A stretch of 64,000 bases of DNA from a virus. Under the pieces are notes generated by a model. That model was not told the origin of the DNA. It saw nothing but the letters and a program-made list of their open reading frames with translations, and searched no databases. Shown here in pieces: positions 5,985 to 22,753 of the stretch; position 1 is the stretch's first letter, and each line of letters begins with the position of its first letter. The stretch lies in the IMG/VR virus record IMGVR_UViG_3300016474_000281, positions 1 through 64,000 of that record. One strand, written 5' to 3'. The translations under genes and the position numbers were made by a program.

Positions 5985-6067
5985 TAATAAAAGTTTGTAA
6001 TTCAATATCTATTTGTACAGTAGTGGAGAAATACAAAGACCTATCAATTAGATTCATATGCAAATAA
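5975..6067 (+). CDS. micro-ORF A6 (30 aa)
   Basis: pep MRIVIKVCNSISICTVVEKYKDLSIRFICK; 10-nt overlap with A7. Confidence 0.4.
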   Translation: MRIVIKVCNSISICTVVEKYKDLSIRFICK

Positions 6068-6162
6068 CTACAGGTTTTGCAGCTTACTACGTAGTTAGTT
6101 CTATAACTATTCGTAGTACTTGGCAACCTAGGTGCATGTCAACTACGTTAATATGCGAGTAA
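6058..6162 (+). CDS. micro-ORF A7 (34 aa)
   Basis: pep MQITTGFAAYYVVSSITIRSTWQPRCMSTTLICE; 10-nt overlap with the RadC-like start. Confidence 0.4.
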   Translation: MQITTGFAAYYVVSSITIRSTWQPRCMSTTLICE

Positions 6163-9605: not shown

Positions 9606-9640
9606 GCTGGGGGGAGTATAAAGCTCTCTCCAGCATTTTT
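9606..9640 (+). terminator. rho-independent terminator (stem rich in G-U wobbles)
   Basis: gctggggggagt pairs with gctctctccagc (about 12 bp including wobbles), then aTTTTT. Confidence 0.6.
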
Positions 9641-10750: not shown

Positions 10751-10781
10751 AGGGGGGAGGTCTGACTCCCCTCTTTTTTTT
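10751..10781 (+). terminator. rho-independent terminator
   Basis: aggggggag pairs with ctcccctct, 6-nt loop, then TTTTTTTT. Confidence 0.85.
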
Positions 10782-10798: not shown

Positions 10799-11755
10799 AT
10801 GCTAAATATAACACCTTACAAAGAAGCTGTAAGAGAAGCAGCTAAGGTAGGTCATTCTTATTTCAGAAATGTGATCAACGCTGCAGGTACAAGGGAACAC
10901 AGCTTGATAAAGAAACCTTCTACTGTAAAAGCCAGGTTCATTACTACTGAAGAATCTATTACACCTGACTATCTTATTGATGAGGGTGTACCTGTAATGC
11001 ACTTTATTGTAAATGATAAGTTGCAAGATAATGGATTTTACCCTTGTAGGACTATTGCTACTTTTAACATGATTGATGCTTGGTGCTTAGACATTGGTAA
11101 AGAGCAACTGCATGATGATGCTTCATGGGGTAGAGGACAAAGACCAGCAGTAAATACTTCAGCTTTGGAGTTCATGTATTTCTGTAACTGGGCTTCGTTG
11201 CAGTTTTTGAAGAATCAAATCTTTGAAACTAACCAACACTTGCTACCTCTGATTGATGGTGAAGCTATGGATAATGATGAAGCTAGAACTTACATCTTTG
11301 AAACAGCTAGCAACGATGAGATTGTAGCTATGGGTAGAAAAGTCAAAGAAGACTATACCTTTGTCATGCCTTACTTGATTATGAAAAAAGGTAATGAAGA
11401 CTGGGGTTGGTTAAACCCTGAGCGTGTAACAGTAGAGGAACTAGGTAAGAAAGCTTTATCTGTTGTTCTACCTACTGAAGACCAATGGAAGCTGATGTTG
11501 GGTGATGCACAAGAACAGGTGTTAGAAGAGATTGCATGGTTTGCAGATAACTCTAACTCTATGACTCATCCTGTAGCGTTGAAGAAACCTAACTGTTATG
11601 GGTTGTATGACCTCTTTGGTAATGTTTGGAAGATGGTACTTGAAAAACAGCTACCTCTTATGAATAAAACTGATTGGGACAAACATTTCTCTGGTAGAAA
11701 ATACTTGGATATTTTTGCATCCTGTGACAATTCAGCTTGGTTCAAACCTTTGTAA
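10799..11755 (+). CDS. FGE-sulfatase (SUMF1/EgtB-like) domain protein (318 aa)
   Basis: The C-terminal AWFADNSNSMTHPVALKKPNCYGLYDLFGNVWKMVLE matches the family signature (ThPVg.k.pN.wGLyDm.GNVwEw). Confidence 0.7.
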   Translation: MLNITPYKEAVREAAKVGHSYFRNVINAAGTREHSLIKKPSTVKARFITTEESITPDYLIDEGVPVMHFIVNDKLQDNGFYPCRTIATFNMIDAWCLDIGKEQLHDDASWGRGQRPAVNTSALEFMYFCNWASLQFLKNQIFETNQHLLPLIDGEAMDNDEARTYIFETASNDEIVAMGRKVKEDYTFVMPYLIMKKGNEDWGWLNPERVTVEELGKKALSVVLPTEDQWKLMLGDAQEQVLEEIAWFADNSNSMTHPVALKKPNCYGLYDLFGNVWKMVLEKQLPLMNKTDWDKHFSGRKYLDIFASCDNSAWFKPL

Positions 11756-11781
11756 TTGATTCATGTTTATAGATTGATTTG

Positions 11782-11813
11782 AGGAGGCTGGGTTAGTACC
11801 TGGTCTCCTTTTT
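11782..11813 (+). terminator. rho-independent terminator
   Basis: aggaggctggg pairs with cctggtctcct (3 G-T wobbles), loop ttagta, then TTTTT. Confidence 0.7.
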
Positions 11814-11824
11814 AATTCATAGCT

Positions 11825-11989
11825 ATGTTATTGAGTATTGAAAGTAAATACGGTATCAACAAAGAGTATTTTAACAACTTACTTGTTGTTGGAATGGGTT
11901 TGTACTCTGAAAAGTCAAGTTCAAAACGTGGCTTTTATTGGTTTGACTTGAAGCGTTTAGATTGTGGAACTACAACTGTTTTAATATGA
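11825..11989 (+). CDS. micro-ORF B1 (54 aa)
   Basis: pep MLLSIESKYGINKEYFNNLLVVGMGLYSEKSSSKRGFYWFDLKRLDCGTTTVLI; 3p junction ATGA. Confidence 0.5.
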   Translation: MLLSIESKYGINKEYFNNLLVVGMGLYSEKSSSKRGFYWFDLKRLDCGTTTVLI

Positions 11990-12252
11990 AACTTCTAAAG
12001 ATAAAGTTTAAAGGTGTTGGATGCAGAGATAATGTAGGTTCGTATTTAGAAAACAGACGTTTACCTTCTTATCTATACTGGTATAATAAAATTAGACAAC
12101 AGCTTTACAATGGTAATAATATGATACTAGAGACTACATATACTAAAGGTGAAACCAGTATTTTAAGTACCACCTATAGGAAACTTTGTGTACCAAACTG
12201 GCTGTTTGACCTTTCTGATTTACAGCTTAGTTTTATACCTATACTAATATGA
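11986..12252 (+). CDS. micro-ORF B2 (88 aa, looks like two fused units)
   Basis: pep MKLLKIKFKGVGCRDNVGSYLENRRLPSYLYWYNKIRQQLYNGNNMILETTYTKGETSILSTTYRKLCVPNWLFDLSDLQLSFIPILI; an internal aataatatgata junction is read in frame; 3p junction ATGA. Confidence 0.55.
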   Translation: MKLLKIKFKGVGCRDNVGSYLENRRLPSYLYWYNKIRQQLYNGNNMILETTYTKGETSILSTTYRKLCVPNWLFDLSDLQLSFIPILI

Positions 12253-12362
12253 TAGTTTCAATTAAATTCATAAAAGAATCAGATTTTACTGGATTAATGT
12301 TTCCTTTTGTAAAAGGTTGTGAAATTGATTCAGCTACTTTAATACTACACGTATGGAACTAG
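12249..12362 (+). CDS. micro-ORF B3 (37 aa)
   Basis: pep MIVSIKFIKESDFTGLMFPFVKGCEIDSATLILHVWN; 3p junction ATGGAACTAG. Confidence 0.5.
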   Translation: MIVSIKFIKESDFTGLMFPFVKGCEIDSATLILHVWN

Positions 12363-12484
12363 CAACTACAACATTAGTGTTTATGAGTTTATTTGGTGAA
12401 AGATATGTGTACAATCCACAATACTTTAGTGAGTTGTACATGAGAAAATTAGATCATGATTCTGTACATCTAACACTACACTGA
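12353..12484 (+). CDS. micro-ORF B4 (43 aa)
   Basis: pep MELATTTLVFMSLFGERYVYNPQYFSELYMRKLDHDSVHLTLH; 3p junction TGATG. Confidence 0.5.
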   Translation: MELATTTLVFMSLFGERYVYNPQYFSELYMRKLDHDSVHLTLH

Positions 12485-12588
12485 TGAAGATAAAAACCAC
12501 AGGAATACACTACAAGAAGTTTTACAAAGAATATTATTGGATCACAAACTCTAGTAAAGTGGGTAGTACATATTTAATTATACATTGA
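12484..12588 (+). CDS. micro-ORF B5 (34 aa)
   Basis: pep MKIKTTGIHYKKFYKEYYWITNSSKVGSTYLIIH; 3p junction TGATG. Confidence 0.5.
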   Translation: MKIKTTGIHYKKFYKEYYWITNSSKVGSTYLIIH

Positions 12589-12695
12589 TGGAAATCAAAA
12601 TAATATTTAAGCAATATCTTAGTGCTAAAGGGTTATTTTTCCCTAGTGTCAAGTATATATCTTCTAACGTAACTACATTATTTTACATAGTATGA
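12588..12695 (+). CDS. micro-ORF B6 (35 aa)
   Basis: pep MEIKIIFKQYLSAKGLFFPSVKYISSNVTTLFYIV; 3p junction ATGA. Confidence 0.5.
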   Translation: MEIKIIFKQYLSAKGLFFPSVKYISSNVTTLFYIV

Positions 12696-12802
12696 AAATC
12701 AAATGGTATCTTATGACTAGAATAGATATTAAAGTACATTCTACATACAGCAGTCTTACCCTAATGAATGATTCTTTAAGTACTGTAATGTTACTGATAT
12801 GA
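12692..12802 (+). CDS. micro-ORF B7 (36 aa), paralog of B12
   Basis: pep MKIKWYLMTRIDIKVHSTYSSLTLMNDSLSTVMLLI; 3p junction ATGA. Confidence 0.55.
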   Translation: MKIKWYLMTRIDIKVHSTYSSLTLMNDSLSTVMLLI

Positions 12803-12936
12803 AAGTAACTTTAAGACTAGTAGGAAGTTGTTATCTAAACAAAAAGTTTTACGTATGGTATTCAATAAAGCATTATGTTATGTGGAATACTATGAACAAA
12901 CAAATACACTGTTCAAATACATTTATGTTAATATGA
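12799..12936 (+). CDS. micro-ORF B8 (45 aa), paralog of B13
   Basis: pep MKVTLRLVGSCYLNKKFYVWYSIKHYVMWNTMNKQIHCSNTFMLI; 3p junction ATGA. Confidence 0.55.
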   Translation: MKVTLRLVGSCYLNKKFYVWYSIKHYVMWNTMNKQIHCSNTFMLI

Positions 12937-12962
12937 AAGTAGCTTTATTAGATGTGAGATGA
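12933..12962 (+). pseudogene. micro-ORF B9, 9-aa stump of a unit
   Basis: pep MKVALLDVR; normal ATGA junctions on both sides but the body is deleted. Confidence 0.4.
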
Positions 12963-13063
12963 AAATAAAAATTTCAGCAATACACGATAACAAGTTTTAT
13001 TATGAACATTCTTGGTTTATAGAAGGTTACAAAGGGTTTAGTGTACATTTAATTACAAACTGA
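12959..13063 (+). CDS. micro-ORF B10 (34 aa)
   Basis: pep MKIKISAIHDNKFYYEHSWFIEGYKGFSVHLITN; 3p junction TGATG. Confidence 0.5.
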   Translation: MKIKISAIHDNKFYYEHSWFIEGYKGFSVHLITN

Positions 13064-13179
13064 TGGAGTTAAAACTAACAGCAAAACACTATCATGTATC
13101 TGAAGATACGTGGAAGCTAGTAGATGTGTATTTTGGTTTAAAAAGTAAGTACATAGGCACTGAAATTTTACTAATATGA
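13063..13179 (+). CDS. micro-ORF B11 (38 aa)
   Basis: pep MELKLTAKHYHVSEDTWKLVDVYFGLKSKYIGTEILLI; 3p junction ATGA. Confidence 0.5.
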   Translation: MELKLTAKHYHVSEDTWKLVDVYFGLKSKYIGTEILLI

Positions 13180-13292
13180 AGATTACCTGGAAACTTATGA
13201 CCAGATTTGGTACTAAAGTACATTCTACATATAGCAATGTCAAGTTAATAGATGATAACATGAGTACTGCAATCTTATTGATATGGAAATAA
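13176..13292 (+). CDS. micro-ORF B12 (38 aa), paralog of B7
   Basis: pep MKITWKLMTRFGTKVHSTYSNVKLIDDNMSTAILLIWK; 3p junction ATGGAAATAA. Confidence 0.55.
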   Translation: MKITWKLMTRFGTKVHSTYSNVKLIDDNMSTAILLIWK

Positions 13293-13426
13293 CTTTAAAG
13301 ATAACTGGAGGTTGCTGTACAAACAAGAAGTACATTTTACTTCATTCAGCAAAATATTACGCTACTTGGCTTGGTAGAAAAGATAAACAGTTAGCTGATT
13401 GTTCATATATATTTACAATGATATGA
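13283..13426 (+). CDS. micro-ORF B13 (47 aa), paralog of B8
   Basis: pep MEITLKITGGCCTNKKYILLHSAKYYATWLGRKDKQLADCSYIFTMI; 3p junction ATGA. Confidence 0.55.
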   Translation: MEITLKITGGCCTNKKYILLHSAKYYATWLGRKDKQLADCSYIFTMI

Positions 13427-13584
13427 GACTACATAGAGAATACGGTTTTGAAGACATGGACATAGAGATACTTGTGTATGGAGGTTACTTTCATAACACT
13501 AAGCTTGGCATAGATCCGTATAAAATACTCAATGATTTTCGTAGACAGTATGAAACTCGTTCAACAATACTTACTTTAGTATGA
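13423..13584 (+). CDS. micro-ORF B14 (53 aa)
   Basis: pep MRLHREYGFEDMDIEILVYGGYFHNTKLGIDPYKILNDFRRQYETRSTILTLV; track ORF 13399-13584 trimmed to the ATG; 3p junction ATGA. Confidence 0.55.
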   Translation: MRLHREYGFEDMDIEILVYGGYFHNTKLGIDPYKILNDFRRQYETRSTILTLV

Positions 13585-13733
13585 GATTAGATAGATTATT
13601 AGGTGAAACTGATATCATCACTGCCAAAGGTAGTTATTTTAACATGCACTTCAGCAATGAAGCTAACTTAAGTTGGAGGTGTACACTTAGGCTTGCTTAT
13701 TTACTCAAATCTATAATGTTTACAATGATATGA
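13581..13733 (+). CDS. micro-ORF B15 (50 aa)
   Basis: pep MRLDRLLGETDIITAKGSYFNMHFSNEANLSWRCTLRLAYLLKSIMFTMI; 3p junction ATGA. Confidence 0.55.
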   Translation: MRLDRLLGETDIITAKGSYFNMHFSNEANLSWRCTLRLAYLLKSIMFTMI

Positions 13734-13882
13734 ATCTAAATGATTTTTTTGGTATATCTGGAGCTGGACATATTTCAAAAATGATTCAGATGAAAAGGTT
13801 TCCAACACTAATGATGCATCTTGAACTCAAGAACAGAATAGTAAAAGATTTAGGAGCTATAACTATACTAAAATGGAACTAA
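13730..13882 (+). CDS. micro-ORF B16 (50 aa)
   Basis: pep MNLNDFFGISGAGHISKMIQMKRFPTLMMHLELKNRIVKDLGAITILKWN; 3p junction ATGGAACTAA. Confidence 0.55.
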   Translation: MNLNDFFGISGAGHISKMIQMKRFPTLMMHLELKNRIVKDLGAITILKWN

Positions 13883-14016
13883 AAGTATTACGTAAGTCAG
13901 GAGCTGGATATTACTCAGAGCCTTTCAAAAAAGTTACTGAAATTGTATTTAAGAGTTATACTCCATACAGGTATAACGTAGCAAAAAATATAAGCATAAT
14001 AACTATACTGAGATGA
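13873..14016 (+). CDS. micro-ORF B17 (47 aa), tandem twin of B18
   Basis: pep MELKVLRKSGAGYYSEPFKKVTEIVFKSYTPYRYNVAKNISIITILR; 3p junction ATGA. Confidence 0.6.
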   Translation: MELKVLRKSGAGYYSEPFKKVTEIVFKSYTPYRYNVAKNISIITILR

Positions 14017-14162
14017 ACTTAAAAGTGTCACGTAAGTCAGGAGGTGGATACTTTACACAACCTTTTTTAGTAAGAAATGACATTGTGTTAATGAGTTATG
14101 TTTCATACAAGTTTAACGCAACAAAAGATACAAGCTTAATAACTATATTGATATGGAAGTAA
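14013..14162 (+). CDS. micro-ORF B18 (49 aa), tandem twin of B17
   Basis: pep MNLKVSRKSGGGYFTQPFLVRNDIVLMSYVSYKFNATKDTSLITILIWK; 3p junction ATGGAAGTAA. Confidence 0.6.
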   Translation: MNLKVSRKSGGGYFTQPFLVRNDIVLMSYVSYKFNATKDTSLITILIWK

Positions 14163-14278
14163 GAGTTAATAAAGTAGGTGGTGCTTACTACAGTTTAAAA
14201 GATAAACAAACTGATGTGTATTACTGCAGACATTTTCATTCAACACAAACTAATGGAACTAAATTAGTACTGCAATGA
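14153..14278 (+). CDS. micro-ORF B19 (41 aa)
   Basis: pep MEVRVNKVGGAYYSLKDKQTDVYYCRHFHSTQTNGTKLVLQ; 3p junction ATGA. Confidence 0.55.
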   Translation: MEVRVNKVGGAYYSLKDKQTDVYYCRHFHSTQTNGTKLVLQ

Positions 14279-14430
14279 AGGTAGTATCTAAGACATTTGT
14301 AAGTGGTCATTTTAACGAGCAGCTTAAAGATTTAGTTGGGAAGAATATTTTTATTCTCAGGTTCTTACCTTCAAAAGTAGATGGAGATATTATTAACTGT
14401 GTTACTAGTGTAAATTTTATTTCAATATGA
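14275..14430 (+). CDS. micro-ORF B20 (51 aa)
   Basis: pep MKVVSKTFVSGHFNEQLKDLVGKNIFILRFLPSKVDGDIINCVTSVNFISI; 3p junction ATGA. Confidence 0.55.
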   Translation: MKVVSKTFVSGHFNEQLKDLVGKNIFILRFLPSKVDGDIINCVTSVNFISI

Positions 14431-14537
14431 AATTAAAAAGACTTCCTATAACAAGTTACACTCACATAAGAATGGAACCCATATATTTTAGACAATTTAC
14501 TTCTAGCTTAGGAGGTGTTACAACAGTAGTGATATGA
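14427..14537 (+). CDS. micro-ORF B21 (36 aa)
   Basis: pep MKLKRLPITSYTHIRMEPIYFRQFTSSLGGVTTVVI; 3p junction ATGA. Confidence 0.5.
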   Translation: MKLKRLPITSYTHIRMEPIYFRQFTSSLGGVTTVVI

Positions 14538-14674
14538 GACTGTACGCATTAAATGTAGTTGGTTGTTATTGGAACAATAAAGGCGATAGTTTCACAATGT
14601 TAAAAAAAAAGCACTACCTTATTTATGTTTACGCAGGTAGCATAGTTGATTCAACAATATTAATATGCAATTAG
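14534..14674 (+). CDS. micro-ORF B22 (46 aa)
   Basis: pep MRLYALNVVGCYWNNKGDSFTMLKKKHYLIYVYAGSIVDSTILICN; 3p junction ATGCAATTAG. Confidence 0.55.
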   Translation: MRLYALNVVGCYWNNKGDSFTMLKKKHYLIYVYAGSIVDSTILICN

Positions 14675-14811
14675 ATCAGGTTGTATTACTTGGAGGAGAT
14701 GCTTGTGATAAATTTAGACATTTTGTTTCAAATTCAATATTGTCTGGATACTATCAAGACCCTGACTATAAACATAAACTTGACTCAATAATCTTAATGT
14801 TATGGAAATAA
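14665..14811 (+). CDS. micro-ORF B23 (48 aa)
   Basis: pep MQLDQVVLLGGDACDKFRHFVSNSILSGYYQDPDYKHKLDSIILMLWK; 3p junction ATGGAAATAA. Confidence 0.55.
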   Translation: MQLDQVVLLGGDACDKFRHFVSNSILSGYYQDPDYKHKLDSIILMLWK

Positions 14812-14957
14812 ATATAGTTAAAATGCTAGGTGGAGCTATATACAACGATAATACTCTTTTGTCAGATTCAAAGAGGAATACACATTCATCTTGGGATTTC
14901 ATATCTTTTGACACAGCTTATGATATACAGTCAACAATCTTGATGTTATGGAGTTAA
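14802..14957 (+). CDS. micro-ORF B24 (51 aa)
   Basis: pep MEINIVKMLGGAIYNDNTLLSDSKRNTHSSWDFISFDTAYDIQSTILMLWS; 3p junction ATGGAGTTAA. Confidence 0.55.
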   Translation: MEINIVKMLGGAIYNDNTLLSDSKRNTHSSWDFISFDTAYDIQSTILMLWS

Positions 14958-15091
14958 ATAGAATAGTGATTGTAGGTGGTAATATGTTTACCGAAAACAG
15001 TCTATATCAGTTTACTAAAGCTTTTCAATTCTATTCGTTACAAGTGAAACTTACTCCTCGTAGTTCAACAACATTCATACTATGGAAATAG
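14948..15091 (+). CDS. micro-ORF B25 (47 aa)
   Basis: pep MELNRIVIVGGNMFTENSLYQFTKAFQFYSLQVKLTPRSSTTFILWK; 3p junction ATGGAAATAG. Confidence 0.55.
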   Translation: MELNRIVIVGGNMFTENSLYQFTKAFQFYSLQVKLTPRSSTTFILWK

Positions 15092-15240
15092 ATAAAATCA
15101 TGATGACAGGTGGAGATATATATGAACGTTTTCCTTACATGTTTATTAAAATATATCCATTTTACTCAGTATTGTTTAATACAAACAAAACTGATTCAAC
15201 AACATTTATACTATGGGGCTGTTTAGAAAAATACAAATAA
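15082..15240 (+). CDS. micro-ORF B26 (52 aa)
   Basis: pep MEIDKIMMTGGDIYERFPYMFIKIYPFYSVLFNTNKTDSTTFILWGCLEKYK; 28-nt overlap with B27. Confidence 0.55.
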   Translation: MEIDKIMMTGGDIYERFPYMFIKIYPFYSVLFNTNKTDSTTFILWGCLEKYK

Positions 15241-15344
15241 GTGGTGGTTGTTTTAGAAATCATTTGTTTGGTTATGAACCTTTATGCGGGTGGGAATACA
15301 AAAGAATTGACCAAGATGAATCTATTATATTTTGTTTAACCTAA
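15213..15344 (+). CDS. micro-ORF B27 (43 aa), twin of B28
   Basis: pep MGLFRKIQISGGCFRNHLFGYEPLCGWEYKRIDQDESIIFCLT; 10-nt gap before B28. Confidence 0.55.
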   Translation: MGLFRKIQISGGCFRNHLFGYEPLCGWEYKRIDQDESIIFCLT

Positions 15345-15354
15345 TAAAACTATT

Positions 15355-15486
15355 ATGAATCTTTTTAAAAGAATAATCTATGGAGGTGGGCGTGGTAGTC
15401 ATTCAAAAAGTATAAACCTGGTTTTACATTTGTATAACTTCAATAAGGTTAAACCAGATGAATCAATTATAACTGTTTGTTTATGA
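15355..15486 (+). CDS. micro-ORF B28 (43 aa), twin of B27
   Basis: pep MNLFKRIIYGGGRGSHSKSINLVLHLYNFNKVKPDESIITVCL; 3p junction ATGA. Confidence 0.55.
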   Translation: MNLFKRIIYGGGRGSHSKSINLVLHLYNFNKVKPDESIITVCL

Positions 15487-15611
15487 AGATAGCAATGATG
15501 AAGAGAGGTTTATCTTTCTTTAATACAAGAACAAATCCAGCTTTTCATCCCTGGACTTACTCAGCTAAAATGACAAATGTACTTATTGGAACAAAACTTA
15601 TCTTGATATGA
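15483..15611 (+). CDS. micro-ORF B29 (42 aa)
   Basis: pep MKIAMMKRGLSFFNTRTNPAFHPWTYSAKMTNVLIGTKLILI; 3p junction ATGA. Confidence 0.5.
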   Translation: MKIAMMKRGLSFFNTRTNPAFHPWTYSAKMTNVLIGTKLILI

Positions 15612-15757
15612 AACTAAAAAGTAGAATAATTGGAGAAGGTTACGGCATGTCTAAAAGAGAAATAAGAGATAACAAAGGAAACTCTTATTACCACGCGATG
15701 AAGTTTAAAGATGGTTCTAAAGCAGCTTCAGTAAACATTATACTAACATGGAACTAG
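15608..15757 (+). CDS. micro-ORF B30 (49 aa)
   Basis: pep MKLKSRIIGEGYGMSKREIRDNKGNSYYHAMKFKDGSKAASVNIILTWN; 3p junction ATGGAACTAG. Confidence 0.55.
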   Translation: MKLKSRIIGEGYGMSKREIRDNKGNSYYHAMKFKDGSKAASVNIILTWN

Positions 15758-15888
15758 ATACAATAAGTAAAGGTTACAGTTTTAAATCACCTTTAGCAAA
15801 CATCACCTACATGACCTTAGTTAAAGATACTAAGGTCAAGTTTAGTACGTTGGCAACAAGTAGTATGTTGCTAATATTGACACGATGA
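15748..15888 (+). CDS. micro-ORF B31 (46 aa)
   Basis: pep MELDTISKGYSFKSPLANITYMTLVKDTKVKFSTLATSSMLLILTR; 3p junction ATGA. Confidence 0.55.
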   Translation: MELDTISKGYSFKSPLANITYMTLVKDTKVKFSTLATSSMLLILTR

Positions 15889-16019
15889 GAATTGGAAACA
15901 ACTTATTTGGAGGTAGTTATTATATGCCTAAGAATATAAAGATAGTTGCAGATTATCACGGTGTATTAAGACATACAGCTTCATCCCTTAGAAGTACAAC
16001 ACTTATCTTATGGAACTAA
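15885..16019 (+). CDS. micro-ORF B32 (44 aa)
   Basis: pep MRIGNNLFGGSYYMPKNIKIVADYHGVLRHTASSLRSTTLILWN; 3p junction ATGGAACTAA. Confidence 0.55.
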   Translation: MRIGNNLFGGSYYMPKNIKIVADYHGVLRHTASSLRSTTLILWN

Positions 16020-16156
16020 AAACAGATACGTTTGGTAGTTGCTATTTTACAGATGGACAGTGGCACAAAGACTTTATGTTAGACGCTAACTTTATCTCTA
16101 TTAGTGAAAGTGTTCAGACTCAAAGTAAAAGCGCAATACTAGTACTATGGAATTAA
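16010..16156 (+). CDS. micro-ORF B33 (48 aa)
   Basis: pep MELKTDTFGSCYFTDGQWHKDFMLDANFISISESVQTQSKSAILVLWN; 3p junction ATGGAATTAA. Confidence 0.6.
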   Translation: MELKTDTFGSCYFTDGQWHKDFMLDANFISISESVQTQSKSAILVLWN

Positions 16157-16305
16157 AGTTTGACATATCAGGAGGTAGTCACGCTACTACAGACTTAGTT
16201 AGTGTTCAAAAGAAATCTGTGTTTGACACAGACTTTAAAATTTTTAAAGCTAGGGAACTTCATGGACACAATCACATAAGTACAAATTTGATAGTATGGA
16301 ACTGA
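16147..16305 (+). CDS. micro-ORF B34 (52 aa)
   Basis: pep MELKFDISGGSHATTDLVSVQKKSVFDTDFKIFKARELHGHNHISTNLIVWN; 3p junction ATGGAACTGA. Confidence 0.6.
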   Translation: MELKFDISGGSHATTDLVSVQKKSVFDTDFKIFKARELHGHNHISTNLIVWN

Positions 16306-16445
16306 GAACTAACACACTAGGTAATTGCTACTGTACAAATAAGAATCACTATAAAGTGCCAATGGATAACACGACAAATTACGCTCCTATCAGAACATTC
16401 TTGATACTTAAAAATAGAGGTATAACACTAATACTATGGAACTAA
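16296..16445 (+). CDS. micro-ORF B35 (49 aa)
   Basis: pep MELRTNTLGNCYCTNKNHYKVPMDNTTNYAPIRTFLILKNRGITLILWN; 3p junction ATGGAACTAA. Confidence 0.6.
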   Translation: MELRTNTLGNCYCTNKNHYKVPMDNTTNYAPIRTFLILKNRGITLILWN

Positions 16446-16585
16446 CTGTTGATATATTTGGTAGTAGCTATGATATAGACTCACTTGAACATACAGTGTT
16501 TATAACAGAATTTAGTGTACTTATGCCTATATCAAGATGTTATGAAGTTAAAAATACAGGTGCAATCTTACTGTTATGGAACTAA
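16436..16585 (+). CDS. micro-ORF B36 (49 aa)
   Basis: pep MELTVDIFGSSYDIDSLEHTVFITEFSVLMPISRCYEVKNTGAILLLWN; 3p junction ATGGAACTAA. Confidence 0.6.
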   Translation: MELTVDIFGSSYDIDSLEHTVFITEFSVLMPISRCYEVKNTGAILLLWN

Positions 16586-16722
16586 AGTCTGATATATCAG
16601 GTGCTTCTTATGGAGGATCCTACTTTGTAGATAGGACAAGAATACAACTTAAACGATATGAATTTATATCTGCTGGAATTTGGAAAGGAAAAACTATATC
16701 AACACTATTTGTATGCAGTTAA
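16576..16722 (+). CDS. micro-ORF B37 (48 aa)
   Basis: pep MELKSDISGASYGGSYFVDRTRIQLKRYEFISAGIWKGKTISTLFVCS; 3p junction ATGCAGTTAA. Confidence 0.6.
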   Translation: MELKSDISGASYGGSYFVDRTRIQLKRYEFISAGIWKGKTISTLFVCS

Positions 16723-16856
16723 GAGTTAACTTCTTAGGAATATGCTACTCCAAATGTGAAGTAAGAGATAGAGATATTAAGTCACAACGTTGGGAGTTTG
16801 TAGAAATTAAATCTTGGAATCAAAAAAACATGTCAACGTTAATGTTATGTATTTAG
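16713..16856 (+). CDS. micro-ORF B38 (47 aa)
   Basis: pep MQLRVNFLGICYSKCEVRDRDIKSQRWEFVEIKSWNQKNMSTLMLCI; 3p junction ATGTATTTAG. Confidence 0.55.
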   Translation: MQLRVNFLGICYSKCEVRDRDIKSQRWEFVEIKSWNQKNMSTLMLCI

Positions 16857-16987
16857 ATTTTAAAATGATTGGAGCTGGGTATGAAACACATAACCAATGG
16901 TACAGGATTCAATCTGCTTTAATGGCATTTGGAATACACCGTGGATTTAACGATTTAGACGTAGGATTAAAAACAATACTAATATGA
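16847..16987 (+). CDS. micro-ORF B39 (46 aa)
   Basis: pep MYLDFKMIGAGYETHNQWYRIQSALMAFGIHRGFNDLDVGLKTILI; 3p junction ATGA. Confidence 0.55.
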   Translation: MYLDFKMIGAGYETHNQWYRIQSALMAFGIHRGFNDLDVGLKTILI

Positions 16988-17124
16988 AAATAGCATCAGA
17001 TTTAGCTGGAGGTTCTATATATAACACTAAAAGTATACTTAAAAGTGTATTTGTGCAACCAGCATTATACAGACAAAGAGAAAAAACCGATTCAACTAGA
17101 AGTAGTATAACTATACTAATATGA
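16984..17124 (+). CDS. micro-ORF B40 (46 aa)
   Basis: pep MKIASDLAGGSIYNTKSILKSVFVQPALYRQREKTDSTRSSITILI; 3p junction ATGA. Confidence 0.6.
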   Translation: MKIASDLAGGSIYNTKSILKSVFVQPALYRQREKTDSTRSSITILI

Positions 17125-17267
17125 AACTAAAAATAAATTATAGAGGCATTTCAATATTTCAAAAAGATACATATCTTGAATCTGCTAAGTCACAAAAAGG
17201 ACTGGCACAACAATATGTAAGCTTTTTTGTAAATAAAGTATTAAGTACAACAACATTACTAATATGA
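17121..17267 (+). CDS. micro-ORF B41 (48 aa)
   Basis: pep MKLKINYRGISIFQKDTYLESAKSQKGLAQQYVSFFVNKVLSTTTLLI; 3p junction ATGA. Confidence 0.55.
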   Translation: MKLKINYRGISIFQKDTYLESAKSQKGLAQQYVSFFVNKVLSTTTLLI

Positions 17268-17413
17268 AGTTACAATCAGATATTGTTGGTGGATCGTATG
17301 TACAGAATGAAGATTGTTTTAAACTTCATCTTATAGGTGTAGAGTATTCTGATACGTATACTTTTCTCAGCTATGTAGATAACAATGTAGGTTTAATATC
17401 ATTACTAGTATGA
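17264..17413 (+). CDS. micro-ORF B42 (49 aa)
   Basis: pep MKLQSDIVGGSYVQNEDCFKLHLIGVEYSDTYTFLSYVDNNVGLISLLV; 3p junction ATGA. Confidence 0.6.
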   Translation: MKLQSDIVGGSYVQNEDCFKLHLIGVEYSDTYTFLSYVDNNVGLISLLV

Positions 17414-17553
17414 AATTAAGATTAAATGGAACATTAACTTCTCCTTATATGGGAGCAAGCTGTTATACTGGAATCAATCATAAGAGACATAGTTCTTTAA
17501 AGCTGTGGGCACGTCTACCCAGGACTTGTGGAGCTTCAATTGTGTTGATATGA
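17410..17553 (+). CDS. micro-ORF B43 (47 aa)
   Basis: pep MKLRLNGTLTSPYMGASCYTGINHKRHSSLKLWARLPRTCGASIVLI; 3p junction ATGA. Confidence 0.55.
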   Translation: MKLRLNGTLTSPYMGASCYTGINHKRHSSLKLWARLPRTCGASIVLI

Positions 17554-17681
17554 AGTTGATAGAAAACTTAAACATATATCACTGTTCTTTAGACAAAGAA
17601 AGACAACTATGCCAATTCAAGTATAAACACCATTATGCTGTCATAAATGAATACATAAGTTGTTTAAACATACTGATATGA
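17550..17681 (+). CDS. micro-ORF B44 (43 aa)
   Basis: pep MKLIENLNIYHCSLDKERQLCQFKYKHHYAVINEYISCLNILI; 3p junction ATGA. Confidence 0.55.
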   Translation: MKLIENLNIYHCSLDKERQLCQFKYKHHYAVINEYISCLNILI

Positions 17682-17806
17682 AACTGAGTTATGAATGTTT
17701 TAAGAGAAGAGGCATATACTTTAAAGGATACTTGACATCACCTAAACATACTATTTTCATTCAAGTCAAGTATTGGGACGTAGGTATGTTAAACATATTG
17801 TCATAA
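17678..17806 (+). CDS. micro-ORF B45 (42 aa)
   Basis: pep MKLSYECFKRRGIYFKGYLTSPKHTIFIQVKYWDVGMLNILS; the 3p junction is ATAA because the next unit has lost its ATG. Confidence 0.5.
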   Translation: MKLSYECFKRRGIYFKGYLTSPKHTIFIQVKYWDVGMLNILS

Positions 17807-17928
17807 GATTGCATTACTTTATATTGTTTAGAGGATCAAGTTACAGTTCTATAAAAAAAGGTGTATTTGTAAATACGTCTCTTCGTAACAGAAACAAAAC
17901 TAAATCAATAATTACAGCACTTCTATGA
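17803..17928 (+). pseudogene. micro-ORF B46: intact 41-codon unit whose start codon is ATA (TTG two codons later)
   Basis: pep (I)RLHYFILFRGSSYSSIKKGVFVNTSLRNRNKTKSIITALL; tcATAAgat sits where other units have tcATGAaa; 3p junction ATGA. Confidence 0.4.
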
Positions 17929-18068
17929 ACATAATGTGTAAAATAAGAATGACTGGAGGAGACTATTCAACAGGACACTTTGATAGATTTATATATCAGA
18001 ATAAGTGTTACGAACATTACTTGGATCGTAGGTTTATTGAAACAGCTTTACAGCTTATTGTTATATGA
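17925..18068 (+). CDS. micro-ORF B47 (47 aa)
   Basis: pep MNIMCKIRMTGGDYSTGHFDRFIYQNKCYEHYLDRRFIETALQLIVI; 3p junction ATGA. Confidence 0.55.
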   Translation: MNIMCKIRMTGGDYSTGHFDRFIYQNKCYEHYLDRRFIETALQLIVI

Positions 18069-18112
18069 AACTTAATTCGTTATACACTATGAGACTTAAT
18101 CCGTTGTACACT
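18065..18112 (+). repeat. 2 x 24-bp tandem repeat (21/24 identical)
   Basis: atgaaacttaattcgttatacact (18065-18088) and atgagacttaatccgttgtacact (18089-18112). Confidence 0.9.
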
Positions 18113-18208
18113 ACAATTGTTTGTATAGGTATGCATAGGACATTAGCTTATTACCAGCCAATTACAAGATTAAGTTATGAAGATTCAATTATACTTGTAA
18201 CAATATGA
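18065..18208 (+). CDS. micro-ORF B48 (47 aa) with an internal 24-bp tandem duplication of its own start region
   Basis: pep MKLNSLYTMRLNPLYTTIVCIGMHRTLAYYQPITRLSYEDSIILVTI; 3p junction ATGA. Confidence 0.55.
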   Translation: MKLNSLYTMRLNPLYTTIVCIGMHRTLAYYQPITRLSYEDSIILVTI

Positions 18209-18351
18209 ATCTATCCTGGAACGATAACAACTGGCCTTTTACTATAATGGTTAGAGGAGGTAACTTTAAGCGATGTGCACACATGTACACTACTGGTATA
18301 TATGTAACTTACTCTTCAAAACATTACTCAGCTATACTAGTGACAACATGA
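18205..18351 (+). CDS. micro-ORF B49 (48 aa)
   Basis: pep MNLSWNDNNWPFTIMVRGGNFKRCAHMYTTGIYVTYSSKHYSAILVTT; 3p junction ATGA. Confidence 0.55.
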   Translation: MNLSWNDNNWPFTIMVRGGNFKRCAHMYTTGIYVTYSSKHYSAILVTT

Positions 18352-18485
18352 TACTAAATACATTTGTACAATTGAGAGGTACTTGTAACTGCCTGAGAAG
18401 AAAGACAAAAGATGGAGCTATTAGGAGAGGTGTATGGTTTAGCGCGCAAGTAAAATCTCACGGTTTACTACTGGTTTTAATTTAA
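18348..18485 (+). CDS. micro-ORF B50 (45 aa)
   Basis: pep MILNTFVQLRGTCNCLRRKTKDGAIRRGVWFSAQVKSHGLLLVLI; track ORF 18273-18485 trimmed to the ATG; 11-nt gap follows. Confidence 0.55.
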   Translation: MILNTFVQLRGTCNCLRRKTKDGAIRRGVWFSAQVKSHGLLLVLI

Positions 18486-18496
18486 ACAAACATAAG

Positions 18497-18643
18497 ATGA
18501 AATTAACTCAAGACAGTTTGTTGTTGCTATCTAAAGGTGGCCACTACTTAGGTAAGGAAAGTATTTTGGATCATGAAATATGTTATCTTTCATTCTTTCG
18601 TACAAAATACATTCACAAATCAATAACAACTATTTTAATATGA
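18497..18643 (+). CDS. micro-ORF B51 (48 aa)
   Basis: pep MKLTQDSLLLLSKGGHYLGKESILDHEICYLSFFRTKYIHKSITTILI; 3p junction ATGA. Confidence 0.6.
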   Translation: MKLTQDSLLLLSKGGHYLGKESILDHEICYLSFFRTKYIHKSITTILI

Positions 18644-18783
18644 AACTAGTGGAAAGTAGGAAGATAGGAATTTGTTTTAGATCCCGTCCTTTTGTAGCAG
18701 ATAGTGTGTCTGTATTTACAGGGTTTAACAACTTTACATTTCTTTTAGAAAATACATTAGGAACTTATTTAATACTGATATGA
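18640..18783 (+). CDS. micro-ORF B52 (47 aa)
   Basis: pep MKLVESRKIGICFRSRPFVADSVSVFTGFNNFTFLLENTLGTYLILI; track ORF 18580-18783 trimmed to the ATG; 3p junction ATGA. Confidence 0.55.
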   Translation: MKLVESRKIGICFRSRPFVADSVSVFTGFNNFTFLLENTLGTYLILI

Positions 18784-18908
18784 ATTTACACAGGTATCGT
18801 ATAGCTGGAATATCGTATAGACAGAAGTATAACATAGGGTTTATACCTTTTTTTGATAGCCTTAACAAAAGAGATGTTGATGAATCAATAACATTTATAC
18901 TGATATGA
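18780..18908 (+). CDS. micro-ORF B53 (42 aa)
   Basis: pep MNLHRYRIAGISYRQKYNIGFIPFFDSLNKRDVDESITFILI; 3p junction ATGA. Confidence 0.55.
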   Translation: MNLHRYRIAGISYRQKYNIGFIPFFDSLNKRDVDESITFILI

Positions 18909-19048
18909 ATTTAACTATAAAACTGAAACATTATCCGTTTTATCTTAAACAAGATAAGATGTATCAAGCTGATGTGGCTTCTGAAAAGTTAATTTTTAAA
19001 GTGACAGCACAGCATCATTCATACAGTGTGAAAGTGATTCTTGCTTAA
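18905..19048 (+). CDS. micro-ORF B54 (47 aa)
   Basis: pep MNLTIKLKHYPFYLKQDKMYQADVASEKLIFKVTAQHHSYSVKVILA; 16-nt gap follows. Confidence 0.5.
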   Translation: MNLTIKLKHYPFYLKQDKMYQADVASEKLIFKVTAQHHSYSVKVILA

Positions 19049-19064
19049 CACAAACAATACAGTT

Positions 19065-19202
19065 ATGCCGTTGTTGTTTCAAAGAATAGGGTTATCCTAC
19101 ATGAGTTTAAACCACTATGAAATAATTACTAATATGAAGTTGCGAGCTGTTGTTTGTAAAGCAGGTAACTTTAGCTCAAAAATGATATTGACATGGAACT
19201 AG
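19065..19202 (+). CDS. micro-ORF B55 (45 aa, two short units fused in frame)
   Basis: pep MPLLFQRIGLSYMSLNHYEIITNMKLRAVVCKAGNFSSKMILTWN; an internal attactaatatgaag junction is read through; 3p junction ATGGAACTAG. Confidence 0.45.
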   Translation: MPLLFQRIGLSYMSLNHYEIITNMKLRAVVCKAGNFSSKMILTWN

Positions 19203-19336
19203 CTATAGACTTTATAGGAGCTACACATTCTCAAAGTGAATTTCATGTAAAGATTTACATGAACCCCGTACAGTTTTACAGTTTTTTTATATTTGAAAAA
19301 GATGAACTTAGGTCTGCAATATTTAATTTGATGTAA
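19193..19336 (+). CDS. micro-ORF B56 (47 aa), last unit of array B
   Basis: pep MELAIDFIGATHSQSEFHVKIYMNPVQFYSFFIFEKDELRSAIFNLM. Confidence 0.5.
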   Translation: MELAIDFIGATHSQSEFHVKIYMNPVQFYSFFIFEKDELRSAIFNLM

Positions 19337-19343
19337 AAGTTTA

Positions 19344-19374
19344 TTTGCAACATTGACTTAAATAGTTATCTTTG
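19344..19374 (+). promoter_or_regulatory. Bacteroidota-type promoter (TTTG-N19-TAtcTTTG) 4 nt upstream of an ATG
   Basis: TTTG at 19344-19347 and TATCTTTG at 19367-19374 with a 19-nt spacer; ATG at 19379 implies a leaderless or near-leaderless mRNA. Confidence 0.5.
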
Positions 19375-19378
19375 CAGC

Positions 19379-21350: not shown

Positions 21351-21384
21351 CTTATCTTTGTATTGCTTAGTTTCTTAACCTGTT

Positions 21385-21414
21385 GAGGGCTTCTGTAACA
21401 AGAAGCTCTTTTTT
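21385..21414 (+). terminator. rho-independent terminator
   Basis: gagggcttct pairs with agaagctctt (with wobbles), loop gtaaca, then TTTTTT. Confidence 0.7.
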
Positions 21415-21602: not shown

Positions 21603-21749
21603 ATGAAATTCACATTTAAAATGGCTGGTATAGCTGCGGTAACTGAAGTTTATTTTGTAAAAAATTATCACAACAAAGTACTTTTTACAACGGCTATACC
21701 TTGTAAAGTAAGAACTAGAAGTTGTGGTAATAAATTATTACTAGCGTGA
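21603..21749 (+). CDS. micro-ORF C1 (48 aa), twin of C2
   Basis: pep MKFTFKMAGIAAVTEVYFVKNYHNKVLFTTAIPCKVRTRSCGNKLLLA; the 3p junction is GTGA because the next start is GTG. Confidence 0.5.
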   Translation: MKFTFKMAGIAAVTEVYFVKNYHNKVLFTTAIPCKVRTRSCGNKLLLA

Positions 21750-21901
21750 AAATAACGTTAAAGATTAAATTAACTGGGGCAGGTGCTTTAACTGCAGTTT
21801 ATTACATAAAGAGTTATCAAAGTATAATAGTTTTTGAATCTGCTCTAAGCAATAATGTAAAATGTTCTTATTGGAGTAGTAAATTCTTACTAATATGCTA
21901 A
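21746..21901 (+). CDS. micro-ORF C2 (51 aa, GTG start)
   Basis: pep VKITLKIKLTGAGALTAVYYIKSYQSIIVFESALSNNVKCSYWSSKFLLIC; 7-nt overlap with C3. Confidence 0.4.
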   Translation: MKITLKIKLTGAGALTAVYYIKSYQSIIVFESALSNNVKCSYWSSKFLLIC

Positions 21902-22011
21902 TGATTTTCAATGCTGCTGCTTTAACTAATCATACTAAACTAGCTAATTACTTTCGTTTAAAAGCTAAACATGGAGGTAAGCTGGGTAGTTGTAAATTTA
22001 TACTAATATGA
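21895..22011 (+). CDS. micro-ORF C3 (38 aa)
   Basis: pep MLMIFNAAALTNHTKLANYFRLKAKHGGKLGSCKFILI; 3p junction ATGA. Confidence 0.5.
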   Translation: MLMIFNAAALTNHTKLANYFRLKAKHGGKLGSCKFILI

Positions 22012-22157
22012 ACATACCTATAAAAATGTCAGGTGCATCTTACATTAGTAATAAGATCACAACAAATTTAGAAAGGTCAAAACAAAGAGTATTAACAAAA
22101 AGCACCTTTCTACATGTTCACACAAGTAATGTTGGCAGTTTATTTTTATTGACATGA
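22008..22157 (+). CDS. micro-ORF C4 (49 aa), twin of C5
   Basis: pep MNIPIKMSGASYISNKITTNLERSKQRVLTKSTFLHVHTSNVGSLFLLT; 3p junction ATGA. Confidence 0.55.
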   Translation: MNIPIKMSGASYISNKITTNLERSKQRVLTKSTFLHVHTSNVGSLFLLT

Positions 22158-22300
22158 ACATACTCGTACACGTATTAGGTGCATCTCATATCAGCTACAG
22201 GTCTACCTTAGATACAGAAAGGTTAGGGTCAGGTAGACAAGGGTTTTGCGGTTTACATACTCGTGCAAATAATTGTAGTTTAATACTTATTTTGACATGA
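22154..22300 (+). CDS. micro-ORF C5 (48 aa), twin of C4
   Basis: pep MNILVHVLGASHISYRSTLDTERLGSGRQGFCGLHTRANNCSLILILT; 3p junction ATGA. Confidence 0.55.
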   Translation: MNILVHVLGASHISYRSTLDTERLGSGRQGFCGLHTRANNCSLILILT

Positions 22301-22461
22301 AACTAAAACTAAATGTCACAAGTATATCTTGTTGCAGTTGCATAGGTGCAGCTAAAAACTATAAACGTGTAACATGTTTTTTATCTAGCAAGGTTTCTTC
22401 ACCTGTATTAGTACAAAATGGTTTAATTCACGGTAGTATATTTGTATTAGCATGGAACTAA
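22297..22461 (+). CDS. micro-ORF C6 (54 aa)
   Basis: pep MKLKLNVTSISCCSCIGAAKNYKRVTCFLSSKVSSPVLVQNGLIHGSIFVLAWN; 3p junction ATGGAACTAA. Confidence 0.55.
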   Translation: MKLKLNVTSISCCSCIGAAKNYKRVTCFLSSKVSSPVLVQNGLIHGSIFVLAWN

Positions 22462-22622
22462 TGAGAATAGGGTATAGTGGTAATGTTGTTTTCCCCTGGG
22501 GAGGTAGTTGTCTATCAACTTTAAAGATAGGTTTTTCACAATACCCTATATCTAAAAGTAGCGGATATGCTATGCACGTGTTTAAAACACCACTGATAAG
22601 TACTTACTTAGTATTGATATGA
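22452..22622 (+). CDS. micro-ORF C7 (56 aa)
   Basis: pep MELMRIGYSGNVVFPWGGSCLSTLKIGFSQYPISKSSGYAMHVFKTPLISTYLVLI; 3p junction ATGA. Confidence 0.55.
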   Translation: MELMRIGYSGNVVFPWGGSCLSTLKIGFSQYPISKSSGYAMHVFKTPLISTYLVLI

Positions 22623-22753
22623 ACATATATACAATTGGTTTATATAAAGGTATGGTCTTTAAGAATACGCACAAAGACACTTTAAAGTGCTACCTACCTA
22701 GAGACATACTGTTTAAAACAACAGATTTAACATCATATTTTTTAATCACTTAA
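22619..22753 (+). CDS. micro-ORF C8 (44 aa), last unit of array C
   Basis: pep MNIYTIGLYKGMVFKNTHKDTLKCYLPRDILFKTTDLTSYFLIT. Confidence 0.5.
   Translation: MNIYTIGLYKGMVFKNTHKDTLKCYLPRDILFKTTDLTSYFLIT

Follow-up and report, generated by a model that had tools for sequence, protein, structure and literature searches.

What occupies a long stretch of phage DNA that appears to hold hardly any genes? The question is raised by a window of 64,000 nt, positions 1 to 64,000 of the IMG/VR virus record IMGVR_UViG_3300016474_000281, in which an apparent gene desert of about 7.5 kb (array B, Table 1) lies between a gene for an FGE-sulfatase-like protein and a gene for a 79-aa protein. Our results indicate that this region is a head-to-tail array of small open reading frames (ORFs) belonging to one divergent family, and that two shorter arrays of the same architecture, A and C, lie on the same strand. 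Judged from comparison with related strains, the array units are very probably translated genes under selection. The related strains were reached by a profile search, which led to an ortholog of one unit on a Logan contig, and then by exact-protein look-ups, which led to four strains (L003, L014, L015, and L017).

Tiling, signature, and coding character of the arrays

The first-pass annotation of this DNA, made from its letters alone, had described 56 consecutive plus-strand ORFs in array B. When ATG-initiated ORFs of at least 20 aa were chained with overlaps of at most 12 nt, the best chain in 11756-19378 comprised 54 ORFs and covered 95.7% of the plus strand, compared with 23.5% of the minus strand. 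Two further units, one overlapping its neighbor by 28 nt (15213-15344) and one a remnant without an ATG (the degenerate unit in Table 1), bring the number to 55-56, in agreement with that description. Nearly all array units start with ATG, and the interquartile range of their length is 43-48 aa. Stop and start codons overlap by 1, 4, or 10 nt at 47 of the 53 array B junctions, and likewise in the four other strains. Among these overlaps, 27 are of four nt (ATGA), 17 of ten nt (ATGGAAnTAA type), and 3 of one nt (TAATG), and every one is a -1 frame step. Six gaps of 11-33 nt and one of 118 nt, where a unit has lost its ATG, were also found; the earlier account of only three short gaps (10, 11, and 16 nt) was slightly too tidy. 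A stop that overlaps or abuts the next start is the arrangement of translationally coupled genes, and it suits the polycistronic expression that had been proposed for the array.

Such tiling exceeds chance, as had been claimed. Unbroken runs of -1-coupled micro-ORFs reach 18 members in the window and as many as 24 in the related strains, whereas a run of 3 was the longest when 120 unrelated IMG/VR loci were scanned on each strand (240 scans), and runs in four other Crassvirales loci were of 3 or fewer. The two smaller arrays that the first-pass annotation had mentioned also exist, with 7 and 8 units; together the three arrays hold about 70 units in about 9.5 kb, or 14.8% of the window, close to the share of about 15% given before.

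The family signature is very degenerate, with a mean column identity of 16-17%, and most units lack a paralog detectable by BLAST. When each unit was scored by a hidden Markov model (HMM) built from the other units (leave-one-out), 56 of the 68 units outscored at least 96 of 100 composition-matched shuffles, which supports the shared architecture described earlier. Units start with M-[KEN]-[LI], and the N-terminus is anchored on a conserved Gly (M-x-[LIV]-x-h-x-h-x-G-x-x-[YF]), with Tyr or Phe three residues past it and an alternation of polar and hydrophobic residues of strand-like periodicity. At the C-terminus, six hydrophobic residues come after a Ser or Gly. The common scaffold is thus an amphipathic, beta-strand-like N-terminus up to Gly-x-x-Tyr/Phe, a unit-specific middle of about 25 residues, and a small residue with the hydrophobic six; the wholly hydrophobic C-terminal stretch suggests docking onto something else. 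The peptides are basic (median pI 9.3), enriched in I, S, T, Y, M, C, and W, and depleted in D, E, A, and P. An earlier statement on the composition of the core therefore holds for Y, W, and C; K and N are not enriched. The proposal that the peptides are rich in beta-structure agrees with their sequence periodicity and composition, but AlphaFold2, given paralog alignments of 38 and 65 sequences, reached a predicted local distance difference test score (pLDDT) of only 58-60: one run gave a beta-hairpin with a short helix (pLDDT 58), and the other gave no regular structure (pLDDT 60).

Comparison of orthologous units points to selection on the encoded peptides. In 35 equal-length ortholog pairs between the window and L003, about 28.5 additional ORF-killing substitutions would be expected under neutrality beside the 381 substitutions observed, and none was seen (P = 4e-13). 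Differences at codon positions 1:2:3 were 106:78:143, and 179:164:247 in a second comparison. The ratio of nonsynonymous to synonymous substitution (dN/dS) was 0.39 in frame and 0.71 and 0.86 in two off-frame controls, and it ranged from 0.38 to 0.53 in all 10 strain pairs. A neutral simulation, based on the observed spectrum of mutations and constrained only to avoid stops, gave 0.69 +/- 0.08, and the observed 0.38 (bootstrap 95% interval 0.27-0.56) was reached in 0 of 300 simulations. By region, dN/dS was 0.29 in the N-terminus, 0.40 in the unit-specific core, and 0.55 in the C-terminus, where synonymous change was also lowered, as expected where the next initiation region overlaps. For the conserved Ser at position -7, 20 codons are AGY and 18 are TCN, and for the conserved Gly, GGA is about as frequent as GGT; therefore, conservation acts at the amino-acid level. 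ORFs that are kept in relatives, codon-position-dependent substitution, and dN/dS below the neutral control are what a family of coding genes should display, and they uphold the claim that these are real coding genes. Neutral patterns among orthologous arrays, which the first-pass annotation had named as a possible refutation, were not observed.

The same annotation had also raised the alternative that the functional product is an RNA or a DNA repeat. Neither ARAGORN, which searches for tRNA, nor Rfam gave a match in the arrays. Folding z-scores averaged -0.04 per unit and +0.29 in windows centered on junctions, compared with -0.46 for ordinary genes, so that neither a covariance match nor a folding energy below that of shuffled sequences marks the arrays as structured RNA, and a known structured RNA is ruled out. 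Tandem Repeats Finder reported a single 2-copy repeat of 140 nt with 77% identity in the array, and the conservation at junctions is degenerate and codon-wise, which rules out a DNA tandem or CRISPR-like repeat array. All of this evidence points to coding, and by sequence the units are read as protein-coding and not as RNA or DNA repeats.

Stop-codon recoding, as in Crassvirales, also leaves many consecutive short ORFs under the standard code. The array ORFs differ from recoded genes in that they lie in different frames, each with its own ATG, and yield no long ORF after reassignment: with TGA, TAG, or TAA reassigned, the longest run is 126-140 codons and the units are not fused. No suppressor tRNA was found in the window. 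We also infer that the arrays do not encode a polyprotein made by serial -1 frameshifting, in view of the ATG kept by the units and the junctions without slippery heptamers.

Duplication, recombination, and distribution of the family

The related strains share the order FGE-like gene, array B, 79-aa gene, dCMP deaminase, ThyX, and array C. Their flanks are 96-97% identical to the window, and the array itself is a mosaic of 70-99% identity in which units have been gained and lost. Array B contains 65 units in L003, 56 in L014, 45 in L015, and 37 in the partial L017, and its tiling is kept in all four strains (93-98% of the plus strand vs 21-26% of the minus strand). Units are mostly collinear orthologs across strains, and only about 3 of 257 are broken over five loci. 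The array C region is kept in L003, L014, and L015, with 8-9 ORFs when the preceding ORF is counted; its second unit starts with GTG in the window and with ATG in the other strains. Tandem paralogs with a common signature and a copy number that varies from 45 to 65 between close strains are the marks of a multigene family.

Several units record how the arrays change. Unequal recombination is marked by chimeric units, namely the 88-aa unit of array B, whose parents are separate in L003 with four further units between them, and a fused unit in array C of L015. Both tandem and segmental duplicates are present (Table 1). The least diverged paralog pairs have synonymous differences (pS) of 0.19-0.36 and a dN/dS of about 1.0-1.6; therefore, duplicates diverge fast and are then held. 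These values for young pairs answer a check that had been proposed for close paralogs, and they are in line with the claim of diversification by duplication. The description of the array as a "library" is right in that it is one divergent duplicated family. It is less apt for the time scale: most units lack a BLAST-detectable paralog and are collinear across strains, so the array is an old, stably inherited set and not a freshly churning one.

A triplet of recent 36-aa duplicates (MRLKWY…, MRVKWY…, MKIKWY…) was found in L003 (5742-6066 of that sequence) in place of one unit in the window, and its two youngest copies have nonsynonymous differences (pN) above pS and a dN/dS of about 1.6. In several samples, assemblies break within or at the edge of array B: L001 ends at window position 19009, L005 begins about 510 nt 5' of the 79-aa gene, and many contigs are shorter than 3 kb. 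These breaks are compatible with strain-level heterogeneity or with repeat-induced graph tangles. Mutagenesis by a diversity-generating retroelement was considered and rejected, the transition/transversion ratio of 2.3 without adenine bias being an ordinary substitution spectrum; no reverse transcriptase was found among the scanned window genes.

The first-pass annotation had recognized no described protein family, and searches of Pfam, PHROGs, NCBIfam, and PDB sequences likewise gave no match. When 1.84 billion representative proteins were searched exhaustively with HMMER, 15 matches were returned, of which 14 are units of the same phage clade; the remaining one (P0010) is an unrelated internal-repeat protein and a false positive. 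A word-indexed profile search likewise recovered this clade alone. No relatives were found by scans of IMG/VR with the FGE-like protein, ThyX, or one unit, of JGI metagenomes with ThyX, or of GTDB genomes with the DNA polymerase. A triple-junction DNA pattern scanned against IMG/VR hit at least 120 chance loci, none with an array. Similar arrays were also absent from the examined regions of two contigs whose ThyX is about 50% identical, of phi14:2, and of the first 50 kb of Bohxovirus PV686213, where runs did not exceed 3. Full-text literature searches gave no description of such arrays, and no known Acr family or Aca-type regulator was found at the locus. Taken at the sequence level, these results indicate a lineage-specific family without relatives outside this phage lineage.

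Expression signals and possible roles of the peptides

Both signals that the first-pass annotation had placed at the flanks of array B are present. The one upstream, a hairpin with a T-run, would either end transcription of the FGE-like gene as an intrinsic terminator or belong to the leader of array B. The one downstream, a promoter-like element of Bacteroidota type, is identical in five strains and appears to mark the end of the array B transcription unit; its pattern is no more frequent in the window than expected by chance. Arrays A and C are likewise preceded by hairpins, and the three are among the strongest terminator-like ones of the region. TAnnTTTG motifs occur within array B only at background frequency; therefore, there are no per-unit promoters. 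Probably, the arrays are read as single transcripts, with entry controlled at the hairpin. The translation of the RadC-like gene may in turn be coupled to array A because its start overlaps the stop of the last unit by 10 nt.

In the window, five strong G-rich hairpins with T-runs (Table 1) end 8-24 nt before the next ATG, with a spacing of 8-16 nt except for the hairpin before the FGE-like gene, and three of the five precede arrays. An overlapping terminator/promoter or attenuator arrangement is suggested because the space between hairpin and ATG is too small for a conventional promoter.

In phi14:2, a crAss-like phage, early-class genes are transcribed by the virion-packaged RNA polymerase gp66 (bioRxiv 10.1101/2020.03.07.982082). 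The replication module may be counted among the early genes. The arrays share their strand with the RadC, pentapeptide-repeat, dCMP deaminase, ThyX, DNA polymerase, and helicase genes, and from this strand and neighborhood only they too would be expressed early, as had been proposed.

Taken together, the arrays are best read as polycistronic cassettes of a lineage-specific multigene family of basic micro-proteins of about 47 aa. The overlapping stop and start codons would permit termination-reinitiation, and one mRNA could give dozens of peptides in comparable amounts. The arrays grow and shrink via unequal recombination at the conserved junctions; young duplicates diverge quickly, and each unit is then kept collinear under moderate purifying selection across strains. 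The peptides would be made with the replication and early genes, possibly gated by read-through of the terminator-like hairpin just before each array, and would form a repertoire of small binders whose variable middle differs from one to the next; the N-terminal strand and the all-hydrophobic C-terminal strand would serve as a common docking or assembly element. Their targets would be components of a Bacteroidota host, such as defense systems or takeover targets. To this statement as a whole, arrays expressed with the replication and early genes and acting as a repertoire of small host-directed binders, we give an even chance. A bolder version is doubtful: that one coupled mRNA yields a library of about 70 co-expressed micro-proteins on a minimal beta-scaffold, renewed by unequal recombination at the -1 junctions and serving as a "shotgun" counter-defense repertoire or, through the terminal strands, as a combinatorial hetero-polymer.

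Several results weigh against a repertoire of host-directed binders. No homolog of known function was found in the databases named above, and the family is found in one phage lineage only. The constraint is moderate: the flanking genes are much more constrained (pN 0-0.016), and nonsynonymous divergence of the units is about 5-10 times theirs. G+C at codon positions 1/2/3 is 0.33/0.33/0.26 in the units vs 0.43/0.31/0.33 in larger phage genes, and a first-position value of 0.33, compared with 0.43-0.44 in ordinary phage genes, is atypical for established proteins. The AlphaFold2 models, whose secondary structure is inconsistent between runs, give no support to an autonomous fold. Finally, a clean match to a promoter is lacking for arrays A and B, and each array is preceded, at 8-16 nt, by a strong terminator-like hairpin; therefore, high expression is not assured.

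The hairpins, the weak peptide constraint, the atypical first-position G+C, and the lack of an AlphaFold2 fold would also be explained if translation mattered and the peptides did not, the arrays being ribosome-filled transcribed spacers or leaders. They might protect the RNA from Rho or RNases, govern timing or attenuation of the genes that follow (RadC in the case of array A and the DNA polymerase operon in that of array C), or titrate the ribosomes and initiation factors of the host. Arrays A and C do lead straight into downstream genes, and junctions are slightly less structured than shuffles. This explanation is unlikely, however. The dN/dS lies below a null that already contains stop avoidance, the constraint reaches into the unit-specific core, Ser and Gly are kept at the amino-acid level across codon families, and a position-specific signature is common to 56 of 68 units. 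In addition, the gene after array B has its own promoter-like element, so array B is not needed as a leader.

Rather improbable is the idea that the units are not independent binders and instead assemble together, with their N- and C-terminal strands pairing into a hetero-oligomeric beta-structure, or coat nucleic acid as small basic peptides. Six hydrophobic C-terminal residues could not be buried by a 47-aa monomer, the N-terminus resembles an amphipathic strand, coupled translation would supply the units in comparable amounts, and the low monomer confidence of AlphaFold2 fits folding on assembly; the median pI is also consistent with coating of nucleic acid. A unit number of 45-65 among near-identical strains is nevertheless hard to square with a defined assembly, and no structural homolog was found.

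The units also resemble precursors of ribosomally synthesized and post-translationally modified peptides (RiPPs) or of class II bacteriocins, in which a short leader up to Gly-Gly/Ala/Ser would be followed by a variable cationic core, perhaps modified by the FGE-like protein and released at lysis. Prochlorosins are a large precursor family with a conserved leader, and they and the double-glycine-leader bacteriocins likewise number dozens of short peptides that are conserved at the N-terminus, which contains Gly-Gly/Ala/Ser, and hypervariable in the middle. The array peptides are cationic and about 47 aa long, have near position 9 a Gly whose next residue is G, A, or S, carry hydrophobic residues at -2 and -4 from this Gly and, in many units, Cys after it, and the FGE-like gene lies directly 5' of array B. 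We nevertheless regard this origin as very unlikely. The would-be leader has only 9-10 aa, compared with about 15-30 aa in known leaders, and its E-L is one position out of register with LSxxELxxIxGG. Conservation at the C-terminus, where the core would end, is as strong as at the N-terminus. No Pfam or NCBIfam leader or bacteriocin model matched the arrays at E <= 0.1, and no C39-peptidase ABC transporter, LanM, radical-SAM enzyme, or cyclodehydratase, nor any other cognate processing or export gene, was found among the scanned neighbor genes. The terminator-like hairpin separates the FGE-like gene from array B, and arrays A and C have no enzyme neighbor. To our knowledge, known RiPP precursor families are not tiled with -1 overlaps.

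It is equally hard to regard the arrays as evolutionary by-products, that is, as a gene nursery or junk in which recombination drives tandem duplication and mostly functionless copies are slowly purged. Only about 3 of 257 units are broken over five loci, none of the 28.5 expected ORF-killing substitutions was seen, orthologs are collinear, and purifying selection was found in all strain pairs; moreover, a lytic phage whose capsid limits the genome to about 100 kb would be unlikely to keep 9.5 kb of stable junk. These observations outweigh the variable copy number and chimeric units, the dN/dS of about 1 of young paralogs, the atypical first-position G+C, the lack of homologs elsewhere, and the one unit that lost its ATG, all of which a by-product would display. 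A non-coding product with incidental ORFs (structured small RNAs, a long non-coding RNA (lncRNA) as in phi14:2, or a DNA repeat with protein-binding sites or of CRISPR-like kind) is barely credible: the units recur at a regular period of about 140 nt, and long early intergenic regions of phi14:2 are transcribed above most genes and called lncRNAs (bioRxiv 10.1101/2020.03.07.982082), but the Rfam, folding, repeat, codon-position, and amino-acid evidence and the ORFs kept across strains all oppose it, and the phi14:2 regions, at background ORF coverage (0.34 vs 0.33 on the two strands), are a different thing.

Carrier genome, known systems, and significance

The gene content of the window marks the carrier as a phage. 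Plus-strand genes span 1-35.7 kb and code for a pentapeptide-repeat protein, a RadC-like JAB protein, the FGE-sulfatase-like protein, dCMP deaminase, ThyX, DNA polymerase, and helicases, and the minus strand holds four giant ORFs and a protein with a crassvirus cargo domain (crAss_CARG1). The carrier is assigned as a distant crAss-like phage because its nearest DNA polymerases among GenBank phages are those of Crassvirales, at only 27-29% identity, and neither blastn nor megablast found a DNA-level match to the window in 50,697 phage records. The crAss_CARG1 domain, the giant minus-strand ORFs, and the TTTG...TAnnTTTG element, which is compatible with a Bacteroidota host, are also in keeping with Crassvirales. 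The features of the window are listed in Table 1.

Table 1. Arrays, selected units, signals, and neighboring genes, with their positions in the 64,000-nt window
Feature	Position	Strand	Remarks
Pentapeptide-repeat protein gene	412-1119	+	235 aa; Pfam Pentapeptide E = 1e-57; first among early-strand genes
Hairpin with T-run	5301-5327	+	12 bp; about 16 nt before first array A ATG
Array A	5344-6162	+	7 micro-ORFs, same architecture as array B
RadC-like JAB-domain gene	6153-6590	+	ATG overlaps stop of last array A unit by 10 nt (ATGCGAGTAA)
Hairpin with T-run	9606-9634	+	G-rich
Hairpin with T-run	10751-10774	+	G-rich
FGE-sulfatase-domain gene	10799-11755	+	Immediately 5' of array B; hairpin with T-run intervenes; kept in all related strains
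Hairpin with T-run	11781-11810	+	13 bp, G+C-rich; ends about 14 nt before first array B ATG; kept in four strains
Array B	11825-19336	+	55-56 head-to-tail micro-ORFs, 34-88 aa, median 47 aa; from ORF lists and chaining
Chimeric unit, 88 aa	11986-12252	+	N-terminal part of one unit joined to distal unit
Segmental duplication, four-unit block	12484-13426	+	Copies 12484-12936 and 12959-13426; paralog pairs 5/9, 7/11, 8/12
Youngest tandem duplicate in window (units 16 and 17)	13873-14162	+	DNA identity 77%, pS 0.26, pN 0.28
Representative unit	16010-16156	+	MELKTDTFGSCYF...SAILVLWN; top leave-one-out HMM score, 34.8 bits; in the run of ten-nt-overlap junctions 16010-16856
Degenerate unit	17807-17924	+	Open, family-like frame (…FRGSSYSS…SIITALL); ATA in place of start codon; missing from L003
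Promoter-like element, Bacteroidota type	19344-19374	+	TTTG-N23-TAtcTTTG; for 79-aa gene after array B
tRNA, CAT anticodon	19834-19908	+	Sole tRNA in window; just 3' of array B
TAnnTTTG motif	21353-21360	+	Upstream of array C hairpin
Hairpin with T-run	21385-21410	+	10 bp; 8 nt before ORF leading into array C
Very hydrophobic ORF, 60 aa	21419-21601	+	Between hairpin and array C (…LMWLLCFVSFIVTTPLMLWYVLEAF…); kept in other strains
Array C	21603-22753	+	8 micro-ORFs, same architecture
Giant-ORF block	35756-58813	-	1340, 1116, 2391, and 2542 aa

Some of the other genes deserve mention. The giant ORFs presumably code for the crAss-type virion RNA polymerase and cargo proteins, and the 421-aa and 905-aa proteins downstream of them have no PHROG match, which shows the divergence of this phage. 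The pentapeptide-repeat protein shares its type of fold with the Qnr/MfpA-like DNA mimics, and it might act against gyrase or against restriction. The 60-aa ORF before array C is not a family member and may be a small membrane protein. Initiator tRNAs have three G-C pairs in the anticodon stem, and these are missing from the stem of the tRNA in the window (CAAGA/TCTTG). This tRNA could be either an elongator for Met or one of the lysidine type for Ile(AUA), and the ATA codon is very common in the arrays.

By analogy, the nearest known kinds appear to be the tandem multigene families of large DNA viruses and the early small-gene clusters of lytic phages. African swine fever virus MGF100/110/360/505 and the "gene accordions" of poxviruses are divergent tandem paralogs with strain-variable copy number, unequal recombination, and a presumed role in host interaction. 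The arrays are like them in having divergent paralogs in a variable region, a copy number that differs between close strains, unequal recombination followed by divergence, and a presumed host-interaction role. They differ in that the units are ten times smaller (about 47 aa) and tiled by stop/start overlap in a prokaryotic polycistron, with about 70 units in a genome of about 100 kb, a bacterial host, and no sequence relationship. The phage clusters (SPO1 gp37-gp60, early genes of T4, T7, and N4, and anti-CRISPR loci) also consist of many small ORFs on the early/replication strand, often with stop/start overlaps, and lie beside genes of anti-restriction type, here RadC and the pentapeptide-repeat protein. 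However, their genes are unrelated, usually fewer than 25, share no common scaffold, and are not preceded by terminator-like hairpins. The array locus differs from both kinds in its very small units, strict -1 tiling, high number, and single family, and would be a variant of viral multigene families that is unusual for a phage.

Two crAss-like phages allow closer comparison. The "lncRNA" regions of phi14:2 are, like the arrays, apparent gene deserts among early-strand genes, and annotations of small ORFs in its intergenic regions were removed in 2020. These regions have no strand-specific ORF tiling, whereas the array desert is 96% covered by conserved ORFs. The reported early "lncRNA" at 2905-4601 of phi14:2 (L020, NC_021806) has background ORF coverage on both strands, and ORF translations at about 4434-4561 resemble a tRNA T-arm (…GGSNPPDS…). 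In the GenBank record of Bohxovirus PV686213.1 (L145), dozens of short, gapped "hypothetical protein" CDSs occupy 2383-49905 on the minus strand, and this stretch resembles late genes with recoded stop codons that were annotated under the standard code.

The crAss-like phages are among the most abundant gut viruses, and most of their early genes are unexplained. In the phage described here, some 70 tiny genes take up about a tenth of a genome of roughly 100 kb. Standard gene callers recover only part of them, and about 30-35 of the 55-65 array B units are listed in public annotations; minimum-length filters would hide all of them. The arrays break metagenomic assemblies, and they provide a strain-resolving marker for the carrier phage. 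Bacteroidota initiate translation without Shine-Dalgarno pairing, and the locus is an unusually clean system for asking how far termination-reinitiation coupling reaches over dozens of cistrons in a Bacteroidota host. It also suits the study of the birth of micro-proteins, their divergence, and the onset of selection on them. Should the peptides prove to be functional effectors, the arrays would be a compact natural library of binders on a 47-residue scaffold and a model of counter-defense diversification by duplication and junction recombination, not by retroelements.

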